Part shown: piece after piece, positions 1-11,878 of the stretch
How positions within the stretch are numbered: the stretch's first letter is position 1
Layout of the letters: each line of letters starts with the position of its first letter
IMG/VR virus record: IMGVR_UViG_3300010970_000218
Span: 1 to 11,878 of that record
Source of the DNA: a virus
DNA length: 11,878 nt
Reading direction: 5' to 3' (one strand)
Position numbers and translations under genes: made by a program
Notes under the pieces: generated by a model
What the model saw: only the letters and a program-made list of their open reading frames with translations
What the model was told of the DNA's origin: nothing
Database searches by the model: none

Positions 1-55
1 AAATTTTAAATTATTATGGAATCAAAGTTAAGTTAAGTTGAGTTGCTATCCATTC
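1..55. repeat. Terminal direct repeat, copy 1 (identical to 11824..11878). Most simply the overlap left by assembling a circular molecule.
   Basis: The 55 nt 'aaattttaaattattatggaatcaaagttaagttaagttgagttgctatccattc' occur at both contig ends. I compared them base by base. Confidence 0.95.
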
Positions 56-283
56 ATAAGCAGCCTGGTTAATATCTAAAGTTTGTCCCCAAATATCATA
101 TTCAGGATCTGTAATTGTCAAATTTCCTTCTGAAAGTAAATTTCCACTTGTTTCAGAAGTATAAATTGACCAATAAAAGGTAGCACTATCTTGCAAATTA
201 TCATTAATTATATAAGAATTTAGATAATTTCCTGTTTGTACTGATCCATTAACCCATATTTGCACTGGTTGTATCTGTTTCAT
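14..283 (-). CDS. Hypothetical 89-aa protein directly downstream of the fibre gene (possible fibre accessory protein).
   Basis: ATG at 283..281 and TAA at 16..14. The start lies 10 nt after the fibre stop. No motif recognised. Across the junction it is followed 19 nt later by the ATG at 11817. Confidence 0.6.
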   Translation of the reverse strand: MKQIQPVQIWVNGSVQTGNYLNSYIINDNLQDSATFYWSIYTSETSGNLLSEGNLTITDPEYDIWGQTLDINQAAYEWIATQLNLTLIP

Positions 284-293
284 TTATTTGTTT

Positions 294-1778
294 TTATACA
301 TTAAGCAAAGCAATTTTATAATCTGTTCCATCCAGGTTTATAATTAAATGTAATCCAGAAGAACCTCCAGCACTTGCAGAACTTTGACCATCAATGCGCA
401 AAGATCCATTCAAATACAATTTTTTACCTTGATCTGTGGTAGAACCAATTAATACATTTTGTGTATCTGCTTTTACTCTCATAGCCTCAGCAAGTGTTTG
501 TAAAGTTGTACCCGTTGAACCTTTATCACTTGTAGTAATAATAACATCACCACCAGCAGCATTACCAGTACCTTTACCACCAGCAATAGTAACATTTCCT
601 CCAGAAAAATCTGTTCCAAATGCACCACTTCCATTAATTGTATAGGAAGTACCAGCACCAGTTGTTTGAACTAAATCACCACGCAAATTAGTAATACCAG
701 AACCAAAATAAATTTCAGTAATTGGTCTAACTGATGAACCTGAAACAAAAGTTCCATCAACAGAATAGGAAAAATTTCCTATTGCAATAGCATTAACAGA
801 TGAACTTGTAGCAACTGATCTTACACTATTTCCTATTGCAATAGCTTGAAAATTAGAATTTGCATTTCCAAGTGAAACACCATCCAAAGAAATAGCACCA
901 GGACCGACAGCTGTTCCACCAGTTGAAGTAACACTATTACCAATAGAAACACCACCTCCTGTACTTGTTGCACCCCCAACGGCTACACCACCAGCACTTG
1001 AAACACTAAAACCAATGCCAACACCAGTAACACTACCACCAGTTCTACCAACTAAAATTGATCTAAAACCTACACTTTGTCCTTCATTCAATATATGTAT
1101 TGAAATATTTTCATTTGTTCCAGTAGCAAGAATATCACCAGCCAATTTCATAGTTCCAGTAACTTGAAATTTTTGTCCGCTATCTGTTGTTGATCCTAAT
1201 ATTAAATTATTTGCAGTAGATATTCTAAAAACCTCACTTGCATTAATTGTTTGCCACATACCAAACAACATTGCACCTGATGATGCAGTGCTAATGCAAA
1301 ATTGACCAGCAGCAGAACCCTGTATAAAATTATTTGTTGCAGTAGATAATCCAATTACAAACCTTTGCGTTCCACCACTCTGGGCATTATCTAAACGCAA
1401 ACTTGGTGAATTGGCACCAAATATTTGTATTCCATTGTCAGCACTGGATGAACCAACAATAAGTTTACCAGATCCGCTACCTATTGCAGCAGTACCAATG
1501 TAAGTTGTACTGGTAAATGACAAACCAAAACCACCATCTGAAACAGTCCTGTTTCCAGTTAATGTATCATTTGCAGTATATATCGTGTTTCCACCACCTC
1601 CACCAGATCCAGCTATCTGATTCCAAGCAGATCCAGTATCTCTAAAAATTCCATATGGACTATCAGTAGCAATAAATATTCTGCCAACAATACCAGCAGC
1701 TGGTCTGTTTGCAGTCAGATCAGAAAAGAACATTGGAGTTCCCTTTTGATTCAAAATGGAAAGATCCAGTGTTATCAT
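294..1778 (-). CDS. Receptor-binding fibre/spike protein, Gly/Ser/Thr/Asn-rich, with YadA-head-like (Hep_Hag-type) repeats.
   Basis: 494 aa. The N-terminus 'ANRPAAGIVGRIFIATDSPYGIFRDTGSAWNQI' is followed by a 'GSGGGGGN' hinge. Repeated motifs include 'FQAIAIGNSVRS' and 'VNAIAIGNFSYS'. ATG at 1778..1776 overlaps the upstream stop (TAATG). Confidence 0.65.
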   Translation of the reverse strand: MITLDLSILNQKGTPMFFSDLTANRPAAGIVGRIFIATDSPYGIFRDTGSAWNQIAGSGGGGGNTIYTANDTLTGNRTVSDGGFGLSFTSTTYIGTAAIGSGSGKLIVGSSSADNGIQIFGANSPSLRLDNAQSGGTQRFVIGLSTATNNFIQGSAAGQFCISTASSGAMLFGMWQTINASEVFRISTANNLILGSTTDSGQKFQVTGTMKLAGDILATGTNENISIHILNEGQSVGFRSILVGRTGGSVTGVGIGFSVSSAGGVAVGGATSTGGGVSIGNSVTSTGGTAVGPGAISLDGVSLGNANSNFQAIAIGNSVRSVATSSSVNAIAIGNFSYSVDGTFVSGSSVRPITEIYFGSGITNLRGDLVQTTGAGTSYTINGSGAFGTDFSGGNVTIAGGKGTGNAAGGDVIITTSDKGSTGTTLQTLAEAMRVKADTQNVLIGSTTDQGKKLYLNGSLRIDGQSSASAGGSSGLHLIINLDGTDYKIALLNV

Positions 1779-2167
1779 TATATGTAAAGTTTTCTAATTA
1801 CGATTAATTGATTTCCTGTATTAATAGGAGTTGCAAAAGTTAACTGATATTGTGTAGTATCAATTTCACCCCTATTACCTGAAATTCTCAAAGATTGATT
1901 TGGAAGCAATGGCACTTCTGCAATTACTAAATTTGTAGTTCCAGAATTGATAAAAGTAATATCATTACAATCTGATCCTATGTTTGCAGTAGTATAAAAT
2001 ACCTTTGTTTCAACATAATACCTTTGATAAGGTTGCCCTGTAGACTTGGAAAACTTGTTTTCCTGTTCGTACATTGCCCTTTCAGATGCCTTTTTAGTAT
2101 ATGCTAATTTCAACTTGTCGGCTGAAATTTCATCCTCAATATTTATTTGTAAATGTTTAGGCTTCAT
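1778..2167 (-). CDS. Hypothetical beta-rich 129-aa protein (probably virion-associated).
   Basis: The ORF track starts at GTG 2185. The first ATG is at 2167..2165, 11 nt after the upstream stop (2179..2181). The C-terminal half 'ITFINSGTTNLVIAEVPLLPNQSLRISGNRGEIDTTQYQLTF' looks like a small beta-sandwich. Confidence 0.6.
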   Translation of the reverse strand: MKPKHLQINIEDEISADKLKLAYTKKASERAMYEQENKFSKSTGQPYQRYYVETKVFYTTANIGSDCNDITFINSGTTNLVIAEVPLLPNQSLRISGNRGEIDTTQYQLTFATPINTGNQLIVIRKLYI

Positions 2168-2178
2168 TTTAATTTTTT

Positions 2179-2478
2179 TTAGCACATATCAGGAAATTGA
2201 CCAACACCACGAAGGATTGATCCTTTGCTTAAAGCAGCAGCAGTTTGTTTAGCTGCTTTTTTTTGTTTAGCAGTCAAGACCGCTTTTTTTACCACTGGAG
2301 CAACTTTTTTAACTGCCTTGCTAACTTTTTGTAGCAAAGATGGTTTTTCAAATTGTTCAGCAGTTATTTTTTCAGGTGCTGGTACTTCCAGCTTATAAGT
2401 TGCAGTCTTTTTTTTCATTGATAGCAACAAAATTGCACCACCAGCTAACAGGATATAAATTAACCCTTTGTTTTTCAT
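2179..2478 (-). CDS. Small membrane protein with an N-terminal TM helix and a Lys/Ala-rich histone-H1-like tail.
   Basis: TM segment 'GLIYILLAGGAILLLSM', then 'KAVKKVAPVVKKAVLTAKQKKAAKQTAAA'. ATG at 2478..2476 overlaps the upstream stop (ATGA). Confidence 0.65.
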   Translation of the reverse strand: MKNKGLIYILLAGGAILLLSMKKKTATYKLEVPAPEKITAEQFEKPSLLQKVSKAVKKVAPVVKKAVLTAKQKKAAKQTAAALSKGSILRGVGQFPDMC

Positions 2479-2867
2479 TTTCTACTTTTTAAATATGTTG
2501 CTATCAAATAAGCAGCTACACCATACAACAAAATTACTTTGCCATATTTTTCAATGTAGAACGAGACAGAACCTTTTTCTTGTTTTTCTACTTTTTCAAT
2601 TTCCTTTTTTTGTTGCTCAATTGCCTGTTTAACATCTCCTGAAAACTTAAAACTATCAGCAGTATGTAAAACAAAATAAGGCTTATTATTGAAGTCTATA
2701 AACTGCCAATATACTTTACCACCTCTTTGAATATAAGAGTAAACTTGCCCTACTGGTGATCCAGCAGTTATGGTTCCAATTTTTACCAATGATGAATTTA
2801 ACCTTGTCAAATCCTTTTTGGCAAATAGTGTTTTTCCAATAATCTTATCAGCAGTTATTTCTGGCAT
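2475..2867 (-). CDS. C-terminally membrane-anchored 130-aa protein with a possible SH3-like N-terminal domain and a Lys/Glu-rich linker.
   Basis: 'IGTITAGSPVGQVYSYIQRGGKVYWQF' is SH3b-like (weak). Then 'EQQKKEIEKVEKQEK', then C-terminal TM 'VILLYGVAAYLIATYL'. ATG at 2867..2865. Confidence 0.6.
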   Translation of the reverse strand: MPEITADKIIGKTLFAKKDLTRLNSSLVKIGTITAGSPVGQVYSYIQRGGKVYWQFIDFNNKPYFVLHTADSFKFSGDVKQAIEQQKKEIEKVEKQEKGSVSFYIEKYGKVILLYGVAAYLIATYLKSRK

Positions 2868-2868
2868 A

Positions 2869-3609
2869 TTATTTTCTTAACATTTTCAAAAGAAAGTTGA
2901 ATTGCATTTTATCTGTTTCAGCCATTTCACAAAGTAGTTCCAGGTCAGATGCTAACTGATCATCAACTACTTTAAGTCTTTCAATAGCATCGTAAATGCG
3001 TTCTTCATTATCTATTTCGGTTTCATTTGTCATTGTTTCCGTTTTTTCTATTCCAGCAACGTGCGTTACCTTTTGAGTAGGTGCAAATAAACTGGATAGT
3101 TGTGAAAGTATCATTGTCTGTATTTGTGGTGATTTCATTAAACCAGCCAGGAAGTTTTCTTCTTCTGGTTCATCATCATCCTCCTCCTCATCAATTTCTT
3201 GCTGCATTTTTAGTGCTGCTATTTCAGATCTCAAAGCATTAATTTCATTCATCAAATTAGGTTGACCAGCATACCCCATTTGATTCATTGGTTGATATGA
3301 AATAGGATTAAATGCAGTTGGTCTGAAAACACATACAACCATTGGTTCATCCTTTCTTGTATAATAACCGCATTTGGGAACTTTTGGATAAATATTTAAT
3401 GTGTATGTTGCTTCTATTCCTTGAGATTCGGCAGCTCTTATGTTAGCTTCCAATTTTTCCCTGGATATATTTTCATCATTTTCAACATTCAAAAATATAA
3501 ACCTTCCTTTTGAATCAGTAACAGACCAAAAATGAGTTGGAGCATTACGATCATACCAATCCATCACATCAGAAGTTCCAACAATTCCAGCATTATTAGG
3601 ATTCGCCAT
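2869..3609 (-). CDS. Hypothetical 246-aa acidic protein (candidate scaffold/assembly factor).
   Basis: Globular N-terminal ~100 aa, helical 'NEINALRSEIAALKMQQE', acidic run 'IDEEEDDDEPEEE', and a helical acidic C-terminus. Sits just downstream of the capsid candidates. ATG at 3609..3607. Confidence 0.55.
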   Translation of the reverse strand: MANPNNAGIVGTSDVMDWYDRNAPTHFWSVTDSKGRFIFLNVENDENISREKLEANIRAAESQGIEATYTLNIYPKVPKCGYYTRKDEPMVVCVFRPTAFNPISYQPMNQMGYAGQPNLMNEINALRSEIAALKMQQEIDEEEDDDEPEEENFLAGLMKSPQIQTMILSQLSSLFAPTQKVTHVAGIEKTETMTNETEIDNEERIYDAIERLKVVDDQLASDLELLCEMAETDKMQFNFLLKMLRK

Positions 3610-3615
3610 ACAATT

Positions 3616-3640
3616 ATATTAAAGGTGAAGGAAAAGTGAA
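3616..3640 (-). promoter_or_regulatory. Intergenic motif copy A. Minus-sense it reads TTCAC-TTTTCC-TTCAC-CTTTAATAT, ending 6 nt before the ATG of 2869..3609.
   Basis: The plus strand reads 'atattaaaggtgaaggaaaagtgaa'. The first 15 nt are identical to copy B (6236..6250), and the distance to the downstream ATG is the same. Confidence 0.6.
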
Positions 3641-3644
3641 TTTA

Positions 3645-4067
3645 TTAGGCATAATAAACCCCAAAACAAACACTAAAATTACCAGCACTGATAGAACTAT
3701 ATGCAGTAGGAGTTTGGATATAAGACTTGCTCCAGATGATCTGTTGACCAGCAAAAGGTGTAATATCAAAACTAAAAGCTGCAGTTGCAGAATTTGAAAC
3801 AACCCTGTTTAGTTCAAGTACAGGAATACGATTAACAGATTCTTTATCATTGTAGTAAAGAACCAAATAAGTTGTTTTCAAGTTTGCCAGGGAAAGCAAA
3901 GCATTTCCAGACAGAACACTATTTGTAATGGTGTCAGTAGTATAGCAAACCAAATTAAGCAAAGATACAAAGCGAAGTTGTGGCTGGTCAGGGAAATAAA
4001 ACCTGGTTCCAGTAGATGATTGAGGAACAACGCACTCAATAAATTCGTAATTCTGAACTTTGTTCAT
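3645..4067 (-). CDS. Candidate small jelly-roll capsid protein (second capsid protein or vertex/penton protein).
   Basis: 140 aa, beta-strand-patterned, few charges ('TRFYFPDQPQLRFVSLLNLVCYTTD', 'TTYLVLYYNDKESVNRIPVLELNRV'). Immediately downstream of the MCP candidate. ATG at 4067..4065. The fold assignment is inference only. Confidence 0.4.
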   Translation of the reverse strand: MNKVQNYEFIECVVPQSSTGTRFYFPDQPQLRFVSLLNLVCYTTDTITNSVLSGNALLSLANLKTTYLVLYYNDKESVNRIPVLELNRVVSNSATAAFSFDITPFAGQQIIWSKSYIQTPTAYSSISAGNFSVCFGVYYA

Positions 4068-4151
4068 TTTTTTTCTATTTGAATATAAAAAATAGGGCTT
4101 CTATGTTTAACGTGGCATCACCCATTCCATTTCAGAAGTTTACTAATATAA

Positions 4152-4814
4152 TTAGCGAACCGGAGTGATATTCTGCCCGAGGATTCCGCGGAAAATTACC
4201 ACAATTCTTGGGGCAACTGATGCCTGAAGTGTAGAAATTGCACCTGGAAGCTCAAGAGTAACCACGTTATTTTTTGATCCAACCAATACAATGTTTGGCT
4301 CTACTGGATAGTATCCAAATTCAGTTGCATCATTCTGATCAATAGTTGTTGCAGTTGCAGCAGCACCTTGTTGAGTTTGCGGAACGTACAAATGCCTGTA
4401 AAGATCCCAAGCTGGAACGATTTGGCGATTATTTACAGTAACTGACAATTTACCATTGTACAAATTATACAAAGCAGTAGCAGCACCTGAAGTGGTGAAA
4501 GCTGAAGCATTTGGATAAGTGTAAAGAGGAAAAGCAGTAGTAGTGGATGAAGCTGGGATACTTACGAAAACGCCTATGCTCGATACCACGAACGCATCCT
4601 GAAGATTCAAAAGTTGATTCGTTGGATAGTTAGTATTAGCACCGGTGCTATTAACCAGAATGGGAATTTGGTATGAAGTAGTAGAAGTTGACATTGCTAC
4701 TTCAGAACGAAGATAAGACTGGCTGAGAACCGCTTGACCAGCAGAAAAACCAGCATTGTTAACAAGATTTTTGGCATTGTCAAATATTAGCCTTTGCCCG
4801 TGTTGTGTTGCCAT
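4152..4814 (-). CDS. Candidate major capsid protein of single-jelly-roll size (220 aa).
   Basis: No Cys, and rich in Ala/Thr/Ser/Asn/Val with alternating beta patterns ('AFVVSSIGVFVSIP', 'NGKLSVTVNNRQIVPAWDLY', 'NNVVTLELPG', 'RIVVIFRGIL'). It looks locally GC-richer than its neighbours. An 84-nt spacer follows it. No homology search was possible. Confidence 0.45.
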   Translation of the reverse strand: MATQHGQRLIFDNAKNLVNNAGFSAGQAVLSQSYLRSEVAMSTSTTSYQIPILVNSTGANTNYPTNQLLNLQDAFVVSSIGVFVSIPASSTTTAFPLYTYPNASAFTTSGAATALYNLYNGKLSVTVNNRQIVPAWDLYRHLYVPQTQQGAAATATTIDQNDATEFGYYPVEPNIVLVGSKNNVVTLELPGAISTLQASVAPRIVVIFRGILGQNITPVR

Positions 4815-4840
4815 TTTATTTAATTTTTACTTTGTTTAGA

Positions 4841-5269
4841 TTAATAAGAATATTCTTCATCCATTCCAGCAATTACGGAAAGATTGTCCTCACCATAACC
4901 AGCAATAACAGAAAGATCATCTCCAGCCATTACACTAACTGGAATTTCCATTGCTTCATCAATGGCACCCAGAATGTTAGTTGCTTGAAGCAGTCCAAGA
5001 CCACCAGCAGCTACCATACCATCACCGATTGACTTACCAAAAGATCCTTTTACAAATTTAGGAAGGAAAGCACCAATAGCCACAACTGCAGCAGATTTGA
5101 TCTTTGCATCCAAATTAGGAAGAATTTTACCAGATGAAGTCAGAACCCTTGCAGCAGCAGCACCAGCAACAAGACCAGCAGCATCCATAATAAAAGACTT
5201 TCCGATTGCTCCCATTTTGCGAGATTTCCTACGACGGCTGGGGGCAGACCTCTTTTTTCTTTTAGCCAT
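4841..5269 (-). CDS. Protein with an Arg/Lys-rich N-terminal arm, a Gly/Ala-rich hydrophobic core and an acidic repeat tail (putative DNA-binding internal/membrane virion protein).
   Basis: N-terminus 'MAKRKKRSAPSRRRKSRK'. Hydrophobic segments 'AAGLVAGAAAARVL' and 'AAVVAIGAFL'. C-terminal tandem 'DDLSVIAGYGE/DNLSVIAGMDE'. Confidence 0.6.
   Translation of the reverse strand: MAKRKKRSAPSRRRKSRKMGAIGKSFIMDAAGLVAGAAAARVLTSSGKILPNLDAKIKSAAVVAIGAFLPKFVKGSFGKSIGDGMVAAGGLGLLQATNILGAIDEAMEIPVSVMAGDDLSVIAGYGEDNLSVIAGMDEEYSY
4866..4931 (-). repeat. Imperfect 33-nt tandem duplication (2 units) inside CDS 4841..5269, encoding the 11-aa D-x-LSVIAG repeat.
   Basis: Unit 4866..4898 'ccagcaattacggaaagattgtcctc...' against unit 4899..4931 'ccagcaataacagaaagatcatctcc...'. 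Confidence 0.7.
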
Positions 5270-5314
5270 TTTATTTTATTTTTTGTTGTTTTTCGGAAAA
5301 CTATTCCAAGATTT

Positions 5315-6229
5315 TTATAACATACCATTTTCAGCAAAGCTATAATGGGAGTCTTTTGTTATTATAATATGATCTAAAATGTTAATATTATGAGTACTTG
5401 CGGCTTTTATTAATTGTTTAGTCAATTTTTCATCTGCTTCAGATGGTCTTAAATTTCCAGAAGGATGATTATGGCACAAAATTAAACTAACTGCACCCAT
5501 TTGTAAAGCACCAGCCAAAACCAACCTAACATCAACACTAACAGAACTTATTGAGCCAATACTATGTACATAAACACCTAAAACTTTATTTGCTTGATTT
5601 AAATATGCAACTGCAAAAAGTTCCTGTGTTTCAATTTTATTTTTTCCAATAAACCTTTTAAAAATTTCGGATCCATCAGTAGAACTTTTTATAGTATCAC
5701 TAATTGCTTTTTTTCCTCTTGTTACTCTTAATTTGACTTCAGGTACCAAATTTTTTAAAGTGCTTAATTTTCCAACACCAGCAACAATAATTTCTTTTCC
5801 AAATTTATATCCTGAAAGGCTAACAAATTCAGAAGGAATTTTTGCACCAATTTTGCTAAAATTAGCAAATGTTCCATTTTTAGATCTTGTTACACGATAC
5901 TCATTTTTTGCAAGTTTTCTGTAACCTTTTTCATCTTTATAACGTGTATCTCTATTTAAATAATCACCAACTTTTTTCTTTTTAACACCTGAAACCACTT
6001 TAATATTTACATTGTGGCTTTTTGTGTCTTTATGTGATCCAGTTACTTTTTTGGCAACTGCTTTCTTTTTTGGTGCAGTTTTCTTTTTTGGTTCAGCCTT
6101 CTTTTTAACGGCACCTACTTTTTTTCCGTAAATATGTGCAAATGCTTCCTTTAAAGAAACACCAGTTTTTTTTCTATATTCAATAGCCTTTTTAAACTTA
6201 TCCTTTGCTATCTTTTGTGCCTGTGTCAT
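5315..6229 (-). CDS. radC: RadC-like JAB/MPN (JAMM) domain protein with a Lys-rich histone-H1-like N-terminal extension.
   Basis: The C-terminal domain 'ELFAVAYLNQANKVLGVYVHSIGSISSVSVDVRLVLAGALQMGAVSLILCHNHPSGNLRPSEADEKLTKQLIKAASTHNINILDHIII' matches the RadC/UPF0758 signature (E..., HNHPSG, PSxxD, DHIII). The N-terminal tract is 'KKKAEPKKKTAPKKKAVAKK'. Confidence 0.8.
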   Translation of the reverse strand: MTQAQKIAKDKFKKAIEYRKKTGVSLKEAFAHIYGKKVGAVKKKAEPKKKTAPKKKAVAKKVTGSHKDTKSHNVNIKVVSGVKKKKVGDYLNRDTRYKDEKGYRKLAKNEYRVTRSKNGTFANFSKIGAKIPSEFVSLSGYKFGKEIIVAGVGKLSTLKNLVPEVKLRVTRGKKAISDTIKSSTDGSEIFKRFIGKNKIETQELFAVAYLNQANKVLGVYVHSIGSISSVSVDVRLVLAGALQMGAVSLILCHNHPSGNLRPSEADEKLTKQLIKAASTHNINILDHIIITKDSHYSFAENGML

Positions 6230-6235
6230 AATTTA

Positions 6236-6260
6236 ATATTAAAGGTGAAGTGAAAGTGAT
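6236..6260 (-). promoter_or_regulatory. Intergenic motif copy B. Minus-sense it reads ATCAC-TTTCAC-TTCAC-CTTTAATAT, ending 6 nt before the radC-like ATG.
   Basis: The plus strand reads 'atattaaaggtgaagtgaaagtgat'. It shares 'atattaaaggtgaag' and 'aaagtga' with copy A at identical spacing to the ATG. Confidence 0.6.
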
Positions 6261-7462
6261 TATTTTTTGCGACTGATCAAATAAATTACCAATGCACCAC
6301 CAATAACAATGGGCAAATAATTCATTTTTTTAGTTCCGTCAGCATTTACATTTTCTGCCTGGTTAACAATACTTTCAATTTCATCCTGTGAAGCCTGTTC
6401 TATTTGGGCATCTGCTTCCAGTTTCTTTTCAACCACATTTTTAACCTGTTTAGCTAAAACTTGTTTTCCAACTTCGGCAACTTCCTTAACATCAATTCCC
6501 AACTTTGAAAGAAATTCAGCCAATTTTATTAAAATAGGTGCAGCAGTGGCAGCAGCAGCAGCAGTGCCAGTGGCAACTACTCCCACCTGACCTTCAGAAG
6601 CAAATTCAACATCAGATCCAAGCAACCTTTTCTTTTTTGCCCCCTGTTCGGTTTTTCTCAAAAGTTCATTTGGATTTCCGCCCAGGTTTTTCCACCAGTT
6701 TTGTGTTTCATCTGCTTTATTTGTAAAAGCATTTTTCAACTTTGTAGCCAAACCCATAAAGTTAAGACCTACCAGAAGCAAAAATGATCCCCTTGCTGGT
6801 GCCAGGGCAATTTTCAAAACTATTTTCTTTTTTTCTTTAGGCTTGGCAGCTGGTGCAGTAGCTTTAGCAACTGGTGCAGCAGCTTTTTTAGCAGCTTTCT
6901 TTTTAGATGCACCAATACCTGAAACTGAATATAGTGGCATAGTTGGTTCTTTATCTATTTTGTGATAATATGTTTTCCTTTCATTAAATTTTGATAGCAC
7001 AGGATCAATAAAGTATTCATTTCCATCTTGATCCTGGATAACTGCAAAAACGTGGTGCGGAATTTCATCTAAAAGTCTGTAACTGGCAAAACGATAATAA
7101 ATAGTATTATTTATTAAATTTTTGCGTTTTAGACTGTCTAAAATGCCCATAATAAACAAAGCATAATTTTTGCAGTCATTTTTTCCCAAAGATAAAATTG
7201 CACTTGGGGACATAATCCTTTGTGCCTTGTCAGATTCTATTTTGTACCGAACATTTTTCTTGAGAAATTCAAAAAGTTTCTTTGCAGTTTGAATACCATT
7301 ACCTGCATAAAAATCTTGGCTAATTTTATCGTATTCACTGGCATAAAGTTTGTGAGCTGAAAGCATTGCAGAAATAATATCTGGGACCTGTTGATCTCTA
7401 ACAAGAATTTTTGAGTTTCCCCCAAAGGGCTTCAATCTTCCCAAAAGTATATTTTTCTGCAT
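6260..7462 (-). CDS. Transglutaminase-like (Cys-His-Asp) peptidase-fold protein with an AKP-rich linker and two TM segments.
   Basis: 'LGKNDCKNYALFIMGILDS' supplies the Cys, 'IPHHVFAVIQDQDGNEYFIDP' the His and Asp. Linker 'SKKKAAKKAAAPVAKATAPAAKPKEKKK'. TM segments 'FLLLVGLNFMGLA' and C-terminal 'LPIVIGGALVIYLI'. ATG at 7462..7460 overlaps the upstream stop (TAATG). Confidence 0.55.
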   Translation of the reverse strand: MQKNILLGRLKPFGGNSKILVRDQQVPDIISAMLSAHKLYASEYDKISQDFYAGNGIQTAKKLFEFLKKNVRYKIESDKAQRIMSPSAILSLGKNDCKNYALFIMGILDSLKRKNLINNTIYYRFASYRLLDEIPHHVFAVIQDQDGNEYFIDPVLSKFNERKTYYHKIDKEPTMPLYSVSGIGASKKKAAKKAAAPVAKATAPAAKPKEKKKIVLKIALAPARGSFLLLVGLNFMGLATKLKNAFTNKADETQNWWKNLGGNPNELLRKTEQGAKKKRLLGSDVEFASEGQVGVVATGTAAAAATAAPILIKLAEFLSKLGIDVKEVAEVGKQVLAKQVKNVVEKKLEADAQIEQASQDEIESIVNQAENVNADGTKKMNYLPIVIGGALVIYLISRKK

Positions 7463-7878
7463 TAAATTAAAGCTGCTTTATAGTCAAAAGGTACTACAAT
7501 ACCATCAAAATTGCCTGTTCCCTTAATTGTGTATTTTAACCCCTTTTTCAGCCATCCTTTTGAAGTGATTAGCTGGAGTATTCCAATAGTAGGTGAAGCC
7601 TGTATTTTCAATTCAGATTCAGACCTGGCAGCAATTTTTTGTTCACCAAAACTGGAAAAATCAGCAACCAATTTATCTCCCAAGTAAACTTCACCAGTAA
7701 TGGCTGAAACCTTTGCAGTTTGTCCAGTTGGATTTTGAACACCAAAAACCAATTCAAATTTTTTATTGGCAAAACGCAATTTTTTAAATATCAATTTTGT
7801 TTTTGCAGCCAACTGACTTTTGCCTAACAAATACCATCCAGTTAGACCAGCCAAACCAATTAAAATCCAATTTCTCAT
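7462..7878 (-). CDS. N-terminally anchored LEA_2/WHy-like beta-sandwich protein (138 aa).
   Basis: The ORF track starts at TTG 7905, which lies inside the -7 promoter box. The first ATG is at 7878..7876. TM segment 'NWILIGLAGLTGWYLLG'. 'FELVFGVQNPTGQTAKVSAITGEVYLGDKLVADF...LKYTIKGTGNFDGIVVPFDY' follows the LEA_2 pattern (NPN-like strand, Y-x-l-x-G, ..PF). Confidence 0.45.
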   Translation of the reverse strand: MRNWILIGLAGLTGWYLLGKSQLAAKTKLIFKKLRFANKKFELVFGVQNPTGQTAKVSAITGEVYLGDKLVADFSSFGEQKIAARSESELKIQASPTIGILQLITSKGWLKKGLKYTIKGTGNFDGIVVPFDYKAALI

Positions 7879-7902
7879 TTTCAAAATTTTCAAATAATAA
7901 CC

Positions 7903-7934
7903 CAAAATTACTGAAAAATATTCAAAAAACCAAA
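7903..7934 (-). promoter_or_regulatory. Bacteroidota-type promoter for the long structural/lysis operon: -33 TTTG (7934..7931), 20-nt spacer, -7 TAATTTTG (7910..7903).
   Basis: Minus-sense the region reads 'TTTG GTTTTTTGAATATTTTTCAG TAATTTTG'. This is a perfect match to the TAnnTTTG consensus, about 25 nt upstream of ATG 7878. Confidence 0.5.
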
Positions 7935-7936
7935 CA

Positions 7937-7978
7937 TTAGGTCAAAGTAGGTCAGAAAGTGGGTCAGTTTATAGGTAC
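7937..7978 (+). repeat. Phased direct iterons (T)AGGTCA / GGGTCA / TAGGTAC, including two adjacent 12-mers (C/G)AAAGT(A/G)GGTCA.
   Basis: TAGGTCA at 7938..7944 and 7948..7954, TGGGTCA at 7960..7966, TAGGTAC at 7972..7978. Spacing is 10, 12 and 12 nt. The tandem 12-mers are at 7943..7954 and 7955..7966. Confidence 0.7.
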
Positions 7979-8007
7979 ACCCGCCCCCCTGTAAGGGGGG
8001 CGGGTGT
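7977..8007. other. Perfect 13-bp GC-rich stem-loop (ACACCCGCCCCCC / TGTAA / GGGGGGCGGGTGT). Candidate origin, packaging or strand-switch structure.
   Basis: Arms 7977..7989 and 7995..8007 are exact reverse complements with a 5-nt loop. Eleven of the 13 pairs are G:C, in an AT-rich genome. No T-run follows on either strand. Confidence 0.75.
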
Positions 8008-8043
8008 CCTACCCCCTTTCCTGAAACCTTTTGTCCAGGATAA

Positions 8044-8062
8044 AAACTGACCTAAACTGACC
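8044..8062 (+). repeat. Two copies of AAACTGACC at 10-nt period, the reverse complement of GGTCAGTTT at 7962..7970. These are inverted iterons on the far side of the GC hairpin.
   Basis: 'aaactgacc' at 8044..8052 and 8054..8062. 'TGACCTA' at 8048..8054 is the reverse complement of TAGGTCA. Confidence 0.7.
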
Positions 8063-8075
8063 AAAATTCATCTAA

Positions 8076-8096
8076 TTCACTTTCCCTTCACCTTTA
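8076..8096 (+). promoter_or_regulatory. Motif copy C, TTCAC-TTTCCC-TTCAC-CTTTA. It is the only copy oriented on the plus strand.
   Basis: The plus strand reads 'ttcactttcccttcaccttta'. Positions 8078..8091 are the exact reverse complement of 8369..8382. Confidence 0.6.
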
Positions 8097-8102
8097 GCAA
8101 TT

Positions 8103-8127
8103 AAAAAAGGGGCAAATTGCCCCTTTT
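8103..8127 (-). terminator. Rho-independent terminator after CDS 8154..8342 (symmetric, so potentially bidirectional).
   Basis: The plus strand reads 'aaaaaaggggcaaattgcccctttt'. Minus-sense this is GGGGC-AATTT-GCCCC followed by T6, about 30 nt after the stop. Confidence 0.75.
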
Positions 8128-8153
8128 ATGTTTGTTTGCAGTGTTAATGTTTG

Positions 8154-8342
8154 TCAGGATGCCTCTGTGAGGTATTCTCTGGCCTCAAATTCCTTCGTTC
8201 TCTTGTCATATAGGTTCACATACCATCCACCACTTTTAATGGCAAATTTGAGGATATTTTGAACGTTGTTGATATTCCTATATTTTCTTGGCTGAATGCC
8301 AGTTTCAGGTTTAAAAAAAATAATGGCAGTGTAAAGTTTCAT
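8154..8342 (-). CDS. Hypothetical 62-aa basic protein in its own hairpin-to-terminator cassette.
   Basis: ATG at 8342..8340 and TGA at 8156..8154. Sequence 'MKLYTAIIFFKPETGIQPRKYRNINN...'. No motif recognised. Bracketed by the 14-bp inverted repeat 8078..8091 / 8369..8382. Confidence 0.55.
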   Translation of the reverse strand: MKLYTAIIFFKPETGIQPRKYRNINNVQNILKFAIKSGGWYVNLYDKRTKEFEAREYLTEAS

Positions 8343-8368
8343 TTTGTTAGAAATTTTCTATTTTTGTT

Positions 8369-8383
8369 GTGAAGGGAAAGTGG
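8369..8383 (-). promoter_or_regulatory. Motif copy D. Minus-sense it reads CCAC-TTTCCC-TTCAC, 26 nt upstream of ATG 8342.
   Basis: The plus strand reads 'gtgaagggaaagtgg'. This is a 14-nt exact inverted repeat with copy C. Confidence 0.6.
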
Positions 8384-8412
8384 TTTTTCGTTAGGAAGAT
8401 CATTTGTCAAGG

Positions 8413-8434
8413 TAGGATCAGGCGACTGATCCTA
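8413..8434. other. 9-bp hairpin (TAGGATCAG-GCGA-CTGATCCTA) overlapping the stop codon of the ATPase gene.
   Basis: Arms 8413..8421 and 8426..8434. Minus-sense there is no T-run, so it is not a canonical terminator. It may be an attenuator or processing structure between the ATPase gene and the 62-aa gene. Confidence 0.5.
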
Positions 8435-9391
8435 TTTTTGTTTATACAATTCACCAGATTTTACGATTGATCCATCCAGCAACCAGTCTTTAACCAATTT
8501 TTTACAGGTAGTTGATCCCTTGCCAGTAAATTCTTCCAGGTCAGCTAAAAGTTCAGTATATTTTCTGGGCTGGTATAATATCCTGTTTATTAGGCTGGTT
8601 TTTTCCATTCCAAAAATATATGTTCCAGACTTTTCCTGTGTGTTGTTTGCCTGTGTCCAGGATGATCCAGAATAATAAATTGAAATAGGGTTAAATTCAT
8701 CAGATGAACGCAGAAAAGTGGCTGAAAGATCAATAGTTTTATTTTCCTTATTTTTTTCAATCTTTAAAACTGATTGTGCTTTTCTATCCAGGTAGGAACC
8801 AATATGCCCAATACTATTTTGTTCCTTTTTACCCAAATGTAAAACGCAAAGGATAAGTAAATTGTGGATCTTGGTAATTTTCTTCAGCCATTGAATTAAA
8901 TAAAAACTTTGTTCTACTGAATTAAAATCTGAAATAAGATCCAGGATTCCATCCAGCACTAAAATTGAGCAGTCTGGATTCTCTTGCAAATAAATTTCAA
9001 TCATTTGCTGAATCTCATTAGGACTGTCCTCTCTAAATAAAAAACTATCAAAATTATGGGGCAAATAATCAGTTATTATTTGCGTTCTAATCCTATCCAA
9101 TACCCTGTAATAATCAAAATCACTGCTTTCAGTGTCTATGTAACAAATTCGCTTCCTGTCTGGTGGAAAGTTAAGTTTCATTCCAAATATATCCCAGGTA
9201 GTAAATGCGGAAGCAATGGCACTGGTGATAAATGTACTTTTACCCGCTTTAGGTAATCCCTGGAAACAAACAAATGACTGCAAACAACCTATATTTTTAC
9301 CATCAATAGTAAAAATTATATTTTCATCTGGTGGCTGGTAGTTTTGCTTGAATTTCCTGGATAACAATTTTTCGTGTAGATCATTTGTCAT
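8432..9391 (-). CDS. RecA-fold P-loop ATPase, RepA/DnaB-like (AAA_25-type). Putative replicative helicase and the only NTPase in the genome.
   Basis: Walker A 'GLPKAGKST'. 'RICYIDTESS' is a catalytic-Glu strand as in DnaB/RepA. Walker B 'CSILVLDGILDL'. 'LLILCVLHLGKK' is sensor-like. The ORF track starts at TTG 9403, and the first ATG is at 9391..9389 (MTNDLHEK...). Confidence 0.65.
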   Translation of the reverse strand: MTNDLHEKLLSRKFKQNYQPPDENIIFTIDGKNIGCLQSFVCFQGLPKAGKSTFITSAIASAFTTWDIFGMKLNFPPDRKRICYIDTESSDFDYYRVLDRIRTQIITDYLPHNFDSFLFREDSPNEIQQMIEIYLQENPDCSILVLDGILDLISDFNSVEQSFYLIQWLKKITKIHNLLILCVLHLGKKEQNSIGHIGSYLDRKAQSVLKIEKNKENKTIDLSATFLRSSDEFNPISIYYSGSSWTQANNTQEKSGTYIFGMEKTSLINRILYQPRKYTELLADLEEFTGKGSTTCKKLVKDWLLDGSIVKSGELYKQK

Positions 9392-9404
9392 TGGTTTACA
9401 CAAT

Positions 9405-9668
9405 TTAAATTATTATACTACTTTCCTTTTCTCCTTTAGTTTCAATGTATGCACAAAATTCATCAGCTATGTTGTAGGACTGCCTTATTAAGTATGAAAT
9501 ATCCTCATCAGATAGATCCTCAACTTTGTTTTTTCTTAATTGTGCTGAAAGGATATTAAGTGCAGTTATTTCCAGTTTTGACATTCCTGCCATCAGGATC
9601 ACCTGACCAAATTTGTCCTGCATTGGGTGAACTGGCATTGCTGGTAGATCTTTGTTTCTTTGCGACAT
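9405..9668 (-). CDS. Hypothetical 87-aa protein, first gene of the replication-type operon.
   Basis: ATG at 9668..9666, preceded by an A-rich leader. It ends 13 nt before the ATPase ATG. No motif recognised. Confidence 0.6.
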   Translation of the reverse strand: MSQRNKDLPAMPVHPMQDKFGQVILMAGMSKLEITALNILSAQLRKNKVEDLSDEDISYLIRQSYNIADEFCAYIETKGEKESSIII

Positions 9669-9738
9669 TTTTTTATTTTATTTATTGTTGATTTTACAAT
9701 AGTTCTAATTCAATAAGTTTATAACCAATTTTTTTTAC

Positions 9739-9838
9739 ACTTTTCACAATTTGTTTTTTTATTGAATTATTTAAAGTCAAACAATAAGGGCAAAGTGGTT
9801 TCCCGACTTTGCCCCTGTATTGGGTTATTGTGAAAAGT
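9739..9838. repeat. 12-bp perfect inverted repeat ACTTTTCACAAT (9739..9750) / ATTGTGAAAAGT (9827..9838) bracketing terminator 9788..9814.
   Basis: The arms are exact reverse complements. The core CTTTTCAC/GTGAAAAG resembles the TTCAC motif family. Confidence 0.65.
9788..9814 (-). terminator. Rho-independent terminator after CDS 9848..10069.
   Basis: Minus-sense: GGGCAAAGT-CGGGAAACC-ACTTTGCCC, followed by TTATTGTTT. The stem is 9 bp. Confidence 0.7.
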
Positions 9839-9847
9839 TTTGAGCAA

Positions 9848-10069
9848 TTAACGCACTTCATTGTTTCTTTGTGTGTTGCGTTCTTTTAATATTGCTTCAT
9901 ACTTCACAAAATCTTCCATTGCATACTTCATAGAATATTTGCGTAAAAAATAGATCTTTGAAATTCCTTCACTGGGATATTCAGTTGTGGAAAGCAAAAT
10001 AAAGGGTTCATTGGCAGAAATAAAAACTTCAAAAAAATACTTTGTTCCATTAATTGTGTAAGGCTTCAT
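9848..10069 (-). CDS. Hypothetical 73-aa protein.
   Basis: ATG at 10069..10067, 1 nt after the upstream stop. TAA at 9850..9848 is followed by a terminator. No motif recognised. Confidence 0.55.
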   Translation of the reverse strand: MKPYTINGTKYFFEVFISANEPFILLSTTEYPSEGISKIYFLRKYSMKYAMEDFVKYEAILKERNTQRNNEVR

Positions 10070-10070
10070 T

Positions 10071-10319
10071 TTAAAAATTTAATTTAAGTTCTTGAATTTG
10101 GTTTTCATATAGATCAATACTTTCCTGAATCAACATTCTCATTTCATTAACCAATGATATATCAGTATCAATCTGTATTATTTCATACCTATTGCTTCCA
10201 ATATCAAAACTAATTTTAATATTTTGATATTCACCTTGATAACGTTTTAAATTGTTAATCTTGTACTGAATATGCTCAATTTCAAGCATTGTTTCCCTCA
10301 AATTGTTGAATAGTTCCAT
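10071..10319 (-). CDS. Hypothetical 82-aa coiled-coil-like protein (trimmed from the 115-aa ORF-track model).
   Basis: An internal ATG at 10319..10317 (MELFNNLRETMLEIEH...) begins 4 nt after the stop of ORF 10324..10515, which removes a 95-nt overlap. The longer start cannot be excluded. Confidence 0.5.
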   Translation of the reverse strand: MELFNNLRETMLEIEHIQYKINNLKRYQGEYQNIKISFDIGSNRYEIIQIDTDISLVNEMRMLIQESIDLYENQIQELKLNF

Positions 10320-10323
10320 AAAA

Positions 10324-10515
10324 TTAATTGTTTTGCATTTCGGCATATCTACCAAAATGATAGCCAATGTGAAATAAATGTAATTCTGAAGGATAAAAAA
10401 TTTCAATCCTTCCCCCATCCAATTCAGTGAAAGGAATGTTCCGATTCGTTAAAAAGGTCATCAGACCATACAGGTAATTGTGAACGATTATTGACTTTTC
10501 TTTTTTTTCTAACAT
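10324..10515 (-). CDS. Hypothetical 63-aa protein.
   Basis: ATG at 10515..10513 immediately precedes an A8 run. It overlaps the 3' 92 nt of ORF 10424..10633 in another frame. The gene model is uncertain. Confidence 0.4.
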   Translation of the reverse strand: MLEKKEKSIIVHNYLYGLMTFLTNRNIPFTELDGGRIEIFYPSELHLFHIGYHFGRYAEMQNN

Positions 10516-10633
10516 TGCTAAAAAATTTAAGAATTGATAAAATTTGTAAAATGACCAGTAGGCAAATTGCAGTTGGGATGCCTATTAATACCAGATAAAT
10601 AACTGATATTACCCAAGCCAATACCCTGATCAT
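10424..10633 (-). CDS. Hypothetical 69-aa membrane protein (two hydrophobic segments followed by a basic stretch).
   Basis: 'VLAWVISVIYLVLIGIPTAICLLVILQILSIL', then 'RKKRK'. ATG at 10633..10631 overlaps the stop of the 24-codon ORF (ATGA). Confidence 0.5.
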   Translation of the reverse strand: MIRVLAWVISVIYLVLIGIPTAICLLVILQILSILKFFSNVRKKRKVNNRSQLPVWSDDLFNESEHSFH

Positions 10634-10704
10634 AAATTATCAGCAAAGCATAAAAGAATAGCACCCAGAACAATAAGCAGAATTTGAATAGCAGTTTTTT
10701 TCAT
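10630..10704 (-). CDS. 24-codon hydrophobic mini-ORF (MKKTAIQILLIVLGAILLCFADNL), absent from the ORF track.
   Basis: Translated by hand. ATG at 10704..10702. TGA at 10632..10630 overlaps the next ATG by ATGA. It is the first ORF after terminator 10791..10819. Confidence 0.35.
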   Translation of the reverse strand: MKKTAIQILLIVLGAILLCFADNL

Positions 10705-10790
10705 TGTTTTTCGTTTTAAAAATTGTTAATAAGTCATTTGTCAATGCGAACTTAAATAACTTTTATTGAATATTCCAAATTTTTAGGCAT

Positions 10791-10819
10791 AAAAAAAGGG
10801 AGAAATTGAAATTTCCCCC
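10791..10819 (-). terminator. Rho-independent terminator after the lysozyme gene, marking the end of the long operon.
   Basis: Minus-sense: GGGGGAAATT-TC-AATTTCTCCC (10-bp stem with 1 mismatch) followed by T7. It lies 30 nt after the stop at 10849..10851. Confidence 0.7.
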
Positions 10820-10848
10820 TGTAACACCTCTATTTATGAACCTATAAA

Positions 10849-11349
10849 CTATTTTAAAAACAATTCCCGTTCCAATTTTCGCCTGTTTGTTAGTCCCTTA
10901 ACTTCTTTTCCCTGTACTTTGTTCCACCTTAAAAACTGATCTGCTACCAGTTTTTTATCTGCTCCCTGGTTAAGCAACCTTAACAATGTGCTGGAACCAA
11001 ATGCACCAGTTCCAATATTATAAGCCAAACTGGTAATTGCTGCCATTTGATTTGCAGTTACTGGAACCTTAATAAGACCTTTTATTTTCTTTTCACGTTC
11101 TGCAACATCCATTTTTAGCCATCTTTCAGCAGTTGCCAGGTCTATTTTATCCCCTGGCTTAATTGCTTGTCCTGTATCTTTATTTATCGTGGAACCGAAG
11201 CCAATAGTCCAAATATTACCAGTGTCAGGATATGCGGTTAATTCTAACCCTTCAAACTTTTTTATAATATTTAATGCACTCACTTTTTTTCCAAATAAAA
11301 GGATAAATAAAACGGCTAAACCAATATAAATTTTTTTCTTATTGGACAT
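10849..11349 (-). CDS. GH24 (T4/P22/lambda-type) lysozyme endolysin with an N-terminal hydrophobic signal/anchor.
   Basis: 'FEGLELTAYPDTGNIWTIGFG' gives the E-x8-D-x5-T catalytic signature. N-terminus 'KKKIYIGLAVLFILLFGKK'. The ORF track starts at GTG 11352, and the ATG is at 11349..11347. Confidence 0.8.
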   Translation of the reverse strand: MSNKKKIYIGLAVLFILLFGKKVSALNIIKKFEGLELTAYPDTGNIWTIGFGSTINKDTGQAIKPGDKIDLATAERWLKMDVAEREKKIKGLIKVPVTANQMAAITSLAYNIGTGAFGSSTLLRLLNQGADKKLVADQFLRWNKVQGKEVKGLTNRRKLERELFLK

Positions 11350-11500
11350 CACTGTCTTTTGCTAAAAAACCAGTAATAGCAGCAGCAATACCAGCAATAA
11401 TAGTAATCCAGTTTTTCTGTGCAATACCATCCATAATTAAAGATCCACCAGTAATAGATCCAAAAATTGATGTTTTGATGTTCTTAAGTATTCTTTTCAT
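11339..11500 (-). CDS. 53-aa two-segment membrane protein (second holin/antiholin candidate), absent from the ORF track.
   Basis: Translated by hand: MKRILKNIKTSIFGSITGGSLIMDGIAQKNWITIIAGIAAAITGFLAKDSDVQ. ATG at 11500..11498, 1 nt after the holin stop. The 3' end overlaps the lysozyme start by 11 nt. Confidence 0.5.
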   Translation of the reverse strand: MKRILKNIKTSIFGSITGGSLIMDGIAQKNWITIIAGIAAAITGFLAKDSDVQ

Positions 11501-11501
11501 T

Positions 11502-11684
11502 TTACTTTTTTTTAAGTTGTTTAAGTCCTACCAATATTGAGATAGTACAGGAAATTGTACTGGCACCTAAAAAGACAATATTTGCCAATTCAGATATATT
11601 TTGCACTCCCAGTAGGGAAAACAAAATTGTGCTAAATGTAGCAATGTGTGTTGGATCAGTTTGTGTCTGCATTGTCCTGTTCAT
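11502..11684 (-). CDS. Holin candidate (60 aa, two TM segments, basic C-terminus) with a possible dual start.
   Basis: 'IATFSTILFSLLGV' and 'IVFLGASTISCTISILVGL', then 'KQLKKK'. Met1 (11684) and Met5 (11672) are separated by N-R-T. Position is upstream of the endolysin. Confidence 0.55.
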   Translation of the reverse strand: MNRTMQTQTDPTHIATFSTILFSLLGVQNISELANIVFLGASTISCTISILVGLKQLKKK

Positions 11685-11817
11685 ATTTAAACTTTTCAGC
11701 TATTTTGTTAAATGCCTGGATAGCAGTAAAAGATTCATCTATTTTAGAAAAAACACCTTTACTGGTAGCAAGATCCAAAATAGCTTTAATAATTTCAAGT
11801 GCTTGTCTTTCGTTCAT
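11656..11817 (-). CDS. 53-aa helical soluble protein, absent from the ORF track.
   Basis: Translated by hand: MNERQALEIIKAILDLATSKGVFSKIDESFTAIQAFNKIAEKFKYEQDNADTN. ATG at 11817..11815 and TGA at 11658..11656. It overlaps the holin start by 29 nt, or 17 nt if the holin starts at Met5. Confidence 0.45.
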   Translation of the reverse strand: MNERQALEIIKAILDLATSKGVFSKIDESFTAIQAFNKIAEKFKYEQDNADTN

Positions 11818-11823
11818 TTTGTT

Positions 11824-11878
11824 AAATTTTAAATTATTATGGAATCAAAGTTAAGTTAAGTTGAGTTGCTATCCATTC
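11824..11878. repeat. Terminal direct repeat, copy 2 (identical to 1..55). It contains a duplicate of the 3' end of CDS 14..283.
   Basis: Exact 55/55 identity with 1..55, giving a unique unit length of 11,823 bp. Confidence 0.95.

Follow-up and report, generated by a model that had tools for sequence, protein, structure and literature searches.

To our knowledge, vertical single jelly-roll (SJR) capsids are known only from a few extremophile viruses, namely Sulfolobus polyhedral virus 1 (SPV1), the haloarchaeal sphaerolipoviruses, and Thermus phage P23-77. They are central to the debate over whether the double jelly-roll viruses and the Helvetiavirae have a common origin (PMC8812541). The shell of SPV1 is built from a hexamer-forming SJR major capsid protein (MCP), VP4, and an SJR penton, VP10, and is filled without a packaging ATPase (PMC8459092, PMC8812541); an FtsK/HerA packaging ATPase is a hallmark of the Helvetiavirae (PMC8812541). 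We describe here two adjacent genes, ORF220 and ORF140, in the IMG/VR virus record IMGVR_UViG_3300010970_000218 (positions 1 to 11,878, referred to below as the window), whose products are predicted to be SJR proteins and probably constitute a jelly-roll capsid module.

The first 55 bp of the window are repeated exactly at its end (1..55 = 11824-11878, an assembly overlap), and the window is therefore a genome closed into a complete circle of 11,823 bp. Every credible gene is encoded by the minus strand, including the two open reading frames (ORFs) within 3645-4814 (sizes in amino acids [aa]), which are supported by AlphaFold2 (AF2) models and Foldseek together with conservation (ORF220) or synteny (ORF140):

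4152..4814, minus strand: ORF220 (220 aa), predicted SJR MCP
4068..4151, minus strand: 84-nt spacer between ORF220 and ORF140, an A-rich leader
3645..4067, minus strand: ORF140 (140 aa), second predicted SJR shell protein, either a penton/vertex protein or a small second MCP

Judged from sequence conservation, ORF220 and ORF140 are real genes, conserved far more strongly than chance would allow. ORF220 has homologues in more than 1200 clusters at 90% identity (a lower bound) and at least 799 representatives at 50% identity (E ≤ 1e-3), nearly all of them 210-300 aa long; homologues of ORF140 fall into 184 clusters and span 133-150 aa. The contigs that carry these genes are mostly circular and 11-13 kb long, many of them from stratified freshwater lake metagenomes, and the homologues are labelled "hypothetical protein" or are nameless. 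Neither protein matched Pfam, PHROGs, NCBIfam, PDB sequences and profiles, or INPHARED (megablast; tblastn, E ≤ 1), and the family as a whole is absent from Pfam, PHROGs, NCBIfam, and INPHARED. No description of this phage family was found in the literature (coverage was incomplete, and an earlier description is possible). The Charybdis elements (10.1101/2025.08.03.668216) and the gut Vinavirales (PMC9502842) were considered and are different groups. ORF220 and ORF140 belong to a very large, uncultured and unannotated phage family.

Both proteins are poor in cysteine and in charge, as a sequence-only reading of this region had noted: ORF220 has no Cys and 19 charged residues among 220 (8.6%), and ORF140 has three Cys and 16 charged residues among 140 (11%). 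That reading had also proposed jelly-roll folds for both, and structure prediction agrees. From a diverse alignment of 115 sequences, AF2 produced a model of ORF220 with a predicted local distance difference test (pLDDT) of 87.4 and a predicted template-modelling score (pTM) of 0.84, all five models scoring 84-87. The model consists of an N-terminal helix (residues 4-20), eight main strands, B to I (29-40, 47-50, 74-85, 122-127, 130-137, 168-178, 183-188, and 203-214), and a short helix after strand F. ORF140, modelled from 121 rather similar sequences, reached a pLDDT of 84.5 and a pTM of 0.79. The most probable PDB match in Foldseek was the same for both proteins, SPV1 6oj0_A (prob 0.99, E 8.4e-3, TM-score 0.40/0.47 for ORF220; prob 0.91, E 8.6e-3, TM-score 0.40 for ORF140). 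Viral jelly-roll capsid proteins, as weak matches, dominate both top-50 lists, which between them include proteins of circoviruses, double jelly-roll MCPs of iridovirus and chlorovirus, the FLiP penton, and P23-77 VP17, as well as coat proteins of plant and picorna-like viruses and cement proteins of phages. In BFVD, ORF140 has good matches to two nameless proteins (A0A345N0K5, TM-score 0.78; A0A345MR68, TM-score 0.71). The models support, with moderate to good confidence, an SJR beta-sandwich of the viral capsid kind for ORF220 and, with moderate confidence, an SJR-type beta-sandwich of the same kind for ORF140. ORF220 is likely to be the MCP.

The two families were also compared with each other. 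With hhalign, the ORF220 and ORF140 profiles gave a probability of 0.2% and a score of 12.9, no better than unrelated virion proteins or shuffled controls, and the other virion proteins gave null results against both families. A greedy alignment of the two profiles is collinear over all strands and in register with independently predicted secondary structure, with 43 strand-strand and 8 helix-helix pairs, compared with 9-20 strand pairs in 12 block-shuffled controls and 11 in a reversed control. It pairs the conserved residues Q32/Q5, E38/E11, F75/F33, and G210/G136. Because the hhalign score is at background, this register is treated as suggestive only; it suggests that the two proteins share a jelly-roll subtype and possibly arose by an ancient duplication.

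ORF220 and ORF140 lie within a virion module whose order is fixed in 71 loci: o147, a transglutaminase-like (TGase-like) protein, a variable position, o142, ORF220, ORF140, o246, small membrane proteins, o135, the fibre, and o89. In the window, the genes around the pair and the replication gene discussed below are as follows:

14..283, minus strand: o89, small acidic beta-rich protein, downstream of the fibre
294..1778, minus strand: fibre/spike (494 aa), Gly/Ser/Thr-rich
1778..2185, minus strand: o135, beta-rich core of ~85-90 aa; its stop overlaps the fibre start, and its true start may be the ATG at 2167
2179-2478, minus strand: o99, small membrane protein with an N-terminal transmembrane helix
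2475-2867, minus strand: o130, small membrane protein with a C-terminal hydrophobic anchor
2869..3609, minus strand: o246, N-terminal alpha/beta domain, acidic linker, and helical C-terminus
4841..5269, minus strand: o142, beginning MAKRKKRSAPSRRRKSRK, with an Arg/Lys-rich N-terminus, Gly/Ala-rich hydrophobic segments, and an acidic tail
5315-6229, minus strand: RadC-like protein (304 aa), RadC JAB domain and Lys-rich N-terminus
6260-7462, minus strand: TGase-like protein (400 aa), Pfam DUF553, C-terminal transmembrane helix
7462-7905, minus strand: o147, N-terminal transmembrane helix and a weak LEA_2-like beta-sandwich
8432..9403, minus strand: AAA_25/DnaB-RepA-like helicase (323 aa; Pfam AAA_25, 3.6e-7; PHROG primase/helicase, 9.4e-7)

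An ORF140 homologue always directly follows the ORF220 homologue, including in two very distant genomes, L079 and L081, which also keep the order o142-ORF220-ORF140-o246. In these two genomes ORF220 is ~30-45% identical to that of the window, and the retained core comprises o147, the TGase-like protein, o142, ORF220, ORF140, and o135. Conservation across the genome peaks in the trio of o142, ORF220, and ORF140. In near relatives ORF140 is the most conserved protein (95-96% identity, where ORF220 has 87-90%); in mid-range relatives ORF140 (82%), ORF220 (83%), and o142 (82-83%) change together, with o135 at 62%, o246 at 51%, and a diverging fibre; at long range ORF140 falls to 37% identity where ORF220 retains 51%. 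The conservation of o142 tracks that of ORF220 and ORF140, and its homologues are present in both distant genomes. The flanks had been described as an Arg-rich arm protein upstream and an acidic scaffold-like protein downstream, and these are o142 and o246, the latter with 43 Asp+Glu, an EEEDDDEPEEE run, and weak conservation.

Hydrophobic anchors occur in at least five proteins of the virion module (o147, the TGase-like protein, o142, o130, and o99). In addition, 16 distant ORF220 homologues among the matches listed (P0259, P0293, and P0315 among them) are extended at the N-terminus by 50-100 aa, in which two hydrophobic, transmembrane-like helices precede the amphipathic helix. The putative MCP is therefore membrane anchored directly in many lineages, and these helices point to an internal membrane as likely. 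The shell may thus rest on such a membrane, with the N-terminus of the MCP at its base, and o142 probably links membrane and DNA.

No ORF of the window appears credible as a double jelly-roll MCP. As the sequence-only reading had stated, few ORFs of the window are long enough: only four exceed 246 aa (494, 400, 323, and 304 aa), and these are accounted for as the hypervariable fibre, the TGase-like, RadC-like, and helicase proteins, ORF220 itself being a predicted single eight-stranded roll. The double jelly-roll MCP typical of prokaryotic Bamfordvirae (Tectiviridae, Corticoviridae, Autolykiviridae, and Finnlakeviridae) was sought in the window's sequences and not seen. The ORF at 2869-3609, o246, had been named as another possible seat of a capsid fold. 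It matched nothing in the PDB or Pfam and has the acidic, mostly helical look of a candidate scaffold or assembly factor rather than of an MCP, and the two folds predicted for ORF220 and ORF140 are jelly rolls.

The absence of a packaging ATPase, also put forward from the sequence, held. The window has no FtsK/HerA-type packaging ATPase; its sole P-loop protein is the helicase-like protein of the replication module, which matches Flavobacterium phage primase-helicases. In L079, a complete relative with a 127-bp terminal repeat, a REP_ORF2-G2P rolling-circle initiator (197-1195) is present and no genuine P-loop protein was found, and in L081 a Rep_1 protein and a single-stranded DNA-binding protein (SSB) (1913-2260, 4856-5998) stand in place of the helicase. 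Replication modules are thus swapped within the family while the virion module stays syntenic. Because the helicase module is replaced in both relatives and L079 lacks any genuine P-loop protein, the lack of a packaging ATPase is a trait of the family as a whole; the helicase belongs to a replication module that can be exchanged and is no packaging enzyme. Relatives of the helicase, 29-35% identical, occur in L072 (MT836017.1) and in seven other human-gut "Bacteriophage sp." records; these helicase-sharing human faecal contigs are 4-25 kb long and unannotated, with no obvious gene order in common with the window.

In the arrangement that we slightly favour, and hold only tentatively, ORF220 is the MCP and ORF140 the penton. 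The two would form the shell module of a tailless icosahedral phage, probably with an internal membrane. ORF220, its roll presumably standing vertically, would form hexameric capsomers, as SPV1 VP4 does, and its N-terminal helix would face the internal lipid membrane, in which relatives of the protein would be anchored. Sequence variability was mapped onto predicted loops to infer orientation and gave no clear partition. ORF140, the smaller SJR protein and probably an ancient paralogue of ORF220, would be the pentameric vertex (penton) protein, and the fibre (294-1778) would be mounted on that vertex, perhaps by way of o135. Being basic and hydrophobic, o142 would connect the DNA with the membrane; the acidic o246 would serve in assembly, and encapsidation would proceed without an FtsK/HerA ATPase, as in SPV1 and FLiP. 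An icosahedral shell requires a pentamer former, and the role is assigned preferentially to ORF140 because no ORF here apart from it and ORF220 is predicted to form a jelly roll and the core of o135 has only ~85-90 aa. The size of ORF140 is typical of SJR pentons: the FLiP penton (8a06) has 147 residues, and the penton model of HCIV-1 VP9 ends at residue 146 (PMC6414509). Conservation of the fibre is confined to its N-terminal ~60 aa (RPAAG..GR.F..T..PYGI.RDTGSAW; window 1600-1778), and the remainder is hypervariable, as expected for a vertex spike.

Among described viruses, the module would work most like that of the Portogloboviridae, represented by SPV1, which provides the most probable structural match for both proteins. 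The two share an SJR-only capsid (predicted here), the lack of a packaging ATPase, a circular genome, and an internal membrane, which is present in SPV1 and likely here. SPV1 differs in its hyperthermophilic archaeal (Sulfolobales) host, its 20-kb genome, its T=43 shell, and its VP1 nucleoprotein core with A-form DNA, whereas the window is 11.8 kb long, has a fibre gene, and shows bacterial signals (a phage lysozyme, holin-like proteins, and no Shine-Dalgarno motifs). There is no sequence similarity between the two, and the structural similarity is weak (TM-score 0.40-0.47, E ~8e-3).

Several observations weigh against the arrangement of MCP and penton or against the folds on which it is built. 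No PDB match reached E ≤ 1e-3 in Foldseek for either protein, the TM-scores to SPV1 are only 0.40-0.47, and 6oj0_A, chain A of SPV1, may be either VP4 or VP10. For ORF140 the alignment is shallow (Neff, the effective number of sequences, 1.6), and only two of its five AF2 models are confident. The ORF140 gene is tandemly duplicated in the relative L071 (6039-6491 and 6495-6944; copy against copy 81 bits), a lineage-specific event, and L081 may hold a second copy with an FPxxP motif (10264-10710), at an E value of only 0.025. ORF140 equals or exceeds the MCP in conservation, while o135 and the fibre diverge; in the Helvetiavirae it is the penton that diverges with the spikes, the two MCPs remaining conserved (PMC6414509), and this pattern favours two MCPs over MCP and penton. 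Finally, o135 overlaps the fibre gene and its core is family-wide (found in L069, L071, L079 [91 aa], and L081 [92 aa]), and on these grounds the penton could be o135 instead of ORF140, or o135 could be an adaptor; we regard it as a candidate vertex-associated protein.

The module could instead, with somewhat lower probability, comprise two co-assembling vertical SJR MCPs, a large tower-bearing ORF220 and a small ORF140, whose heterodimers would form pseudo-hexameric capsomers as in P23-77, SH1, and HCIV-1, with o135 as the penton candidate. The sequence-only reading had proposed such a pair; its two SJR folds are supported by prediction, and the further claim that both are major capsid proteins in the manner of P23-77 stays putative. 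It had itself offered MCP and penton as the alternative, which is at least as likely. Two MCPs would fit the adjacency of two predicted SJR genes and their large/small ratio, which resembles VP17/VP16 (291 and 173 aa) and VP4/VP7, and the alignment in strand register with paired conserved residues suggests the old duplication that such a pair would imply. ORF140 also evolves in lock-step with ORF220 or more slowly, with o135 and the fibre faster, which is the Helvetiavirae pattern (PMC6414509). The family-wide conservation of o135 and its translational coupling to the fibre, the tandem ORF140 genes of L071, and a membrane-associated protein gene ahead of the pair, like VP15 in P23-77 (PMC12429598), point the same way. 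Against this stand the background hhalign score between ORF220 and ORF140, the faster divergence of ORF140 at long range (37% versus 51%), and a third jelly-roll protein for the penton that is only putative, the core of o135 being so short.

The wider likeness to the Helvetiavirae (Singelaviria: Matshushitaviridae, P23-77 VP16/VP17; Sphaerolipoviridae and Simuloviridae, VP7/VP4) is likewise mixed. Adjacent small and large SJR genes, here by predicted fold, a membrane-associated protein gene before the pair, and membrane proteins in the virion module (PMC6414509) are shared, and P23-77 is also a bacterial virus with a small circular genome. The window nevertheless lacks the FtsK/HerA ATPase that marks the group (PMC8812541), its gene order is large then small, the reverse of P23-77, and ORF140 is only a putative MCP; Helvetiavirae genomes measure 17-30 kb versus 12 kb here, where the replication modules are helicase or HUH Rep. 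Kinship with VP16/VP17 in particular found no backing: hhalign of both families against them gave probabilities of at most 0.13%, VP17 appears only at rank 16 for ORF220 in Foldseek (prob 0.15-0.18) and falls outside the ORF140 top 50, and the closest structure is that of SPV1. If ORF140 is a co-MCP, the module would work most like that of the Helvetiavirae; the window is a member of neither group and has no sequence similarity to either.

Two further explanations are less probable still. ORF220 might be the MCP and ORF140 a minor shell component, such as an organiser close to the membrane or a protein that cements or decorates the shell. The Foldseek matches of ORF140 do include trimeric cement proteins from tailed phages (Pam1 7eel_H, E 0.1; KHP40 7dou_4), and its fold assignment comes from weak matches. 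Proteins that cement or decorate a shell tend to be variable and dispensable, though, and ORF140 is universal in the family, adjoins the MCP gene, and is extremely conserved; this option, which we consider improbable, would also leave no protein assigned as penton. Least likely of all, the pair might not be an icosahedral module of the kind proposed but membrane-associated proteins in the virion of an enveloped or pleomorphic particle similar to those of plasmaviruses or pleolipoviruses, or a horizontal-jelly-roll capsid of single-stranded DNA (ssDNA) type, like that of an enlarged microvirus. The transmembrane hairpins on ORF220 homologues, a weak BFVD match of ORF140 to a pleolipovirus protein (prob 0.84, TM-score 0.40), and the rolling-circle replication (RCR) Rep and SSB of relatives are compatible with this explanation. 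In phiX174 the genes J, F, and G encode a basic DNA-binding protein, a large SJR capsid protein, and a small SJR protein that forms pentamers at the vertices, and the order of basic protein, large SJR, and small SJR here recalls it; an acidic scaffold-like protein, the RCR Rep of relatives, and the lack of a packaging ATPase are further resemblances to the Microviridae. The structural neighbours of both proteins are, however, mostly icosahedral capsid proteins, and a fibre with a conserved anchoring domain and a lysis cassette also speak against this explanation. Microviridae differ in that the window has a fibre, membrane proteins, and an endolysin/holin cassette, and genomes of the phage_F type measure 4.4-6.5 kb in T=1 shells. 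The window matched no Microviridae family in Pfam or PHROGs. A T=1 shell of 220-aa subunits would be too small for 11.8 kb and is taken to be impossible here because the genome is twice the Microviridae size while the MCP is half as large.

In ecology and genome organization, by analogy, the family resembles the Finnlakeviridae (FLiP, phiCjT23) and the candidate Obscuriviridae (Cellulophaga phages phi18:4 and Omtje). These phages infect Bacteroidota and contain an internal lipid membrane; their circular genomes of 6.5-9.2 kb are coded entirely on one strand, with an RCR Rep and no packaging ATPase (PMC11946311, PMC9719478, PMC8812541). Their peptidoglycan hydrolase, in the virion or lysis module, is a further likeness to the window, which has a lysozyme and holin-like lysis cassette. 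Omtje is an ssDNA phage, and its relative phi18:4 has a lipid membrane. In Omtje_1 (L082, 4157-5766) the gene for a 241-aa structural protein is followed by genes for 141-aa and 146-aa proteins and then a glucosaminidase, a layout like that of L081. Four Omtje structural proteins gave hhalign probabilities of at most 0.4%, and tblastn against INPHARED found no match at E ≤ 1. FLiP, by contrast, has a double jelly-roll MCP, its penton (8a06) is only a weak Foldseek match for ORF220 (prob 0.33), and the window has a helicase where these phages have Rep.

A Bacteroidota-type host had been suggested for the window and is weakly supported. No Shine-Dalgarno-like motif was found upstream of any of the 23 gene starts in the window, and the leaders are A-rich, which fits translation initiation of the Bacteroidota type without proving it. 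Besides the Flavobacterium-phage helicase matches, relatives lie on three contigs of metagenome-assembled genomes (MAGs) with conflicting taxonomy, one of a Bacteroidetes MAG and one of a "Ca. Pelagibacterales" MAG; the latter conflicts with a host range restricted to Bacteroidota. That relative (L071; 1-10700 and 10755-15851) stands at the end of a 40-kb contig beside hemH, hemE, maf, an aroE-like gene, and coaE, and may be a prophage or an assembly or binning chimera; no integrase or tRNA was seen in L071.

A terminator or attenuator hairpin, as a sign of lower ORF140 expression, was sought in the 84-nt spacer, and none was found (z -1.78). Codon bias was tried as a proxy for expression and set aside: ORF140 and o142 are the most T3-biased genes of the window, which was not reproduced in four distant relatives. 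Strong terminator-like hairpins do mark module boundaries, one at 8105-8127 (after o62 and before the virion module) and one at 10797-10820 (between the early genes and the lysozyme gene). Immediately before their start codons, o246 and the RadC-like gene each have a copy of a ~40-nt repeat (78% identity; minus strand, 3607-3646 and 6227-6266) with CTTCACCTTTAATAT as its exact core, which may be a promoter or operator. The RadC-like gene sits inside the virion module and is replaced or shortened in relatives. The o147 and TGase-like genes form a conserved pair at the start of the module, with the TGase-like protein kept family-wide. In L079 the N-terminal domain of the fibre begins a separate 136-aa protein (7694-8104), which is followed by a 700-aa protein.

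A shell made of two paralogous vertical SJR MCPs, one of them anchored in an internal membrane, and packaged without an ATPase is less likely than not on present evidence. If true, it would be a bacterial "missing link" between a portoglobovirus-like ancestor, with one SJR MCP and no ATPase, and the Helvetiavirae, with a duplicated SJR MCP and an ATPase, and a new taxon, of family rank or higher and separate from the current Varidnaviria/Singelaviria families, would probably be warranted. More generally, the family would represent a mesophilic, bacterial lineage whose shell proteins are all of the SJR type, which has no packaging ATPase, and whose replication modules are interchangeable. With at least 799 clusters at 50% identity, it would give the SJR architecture a wider distribution and supply many sequences for testing the duplication scenario, and it would add a common, unannotated group of small tailless phages to freshwater viromics.

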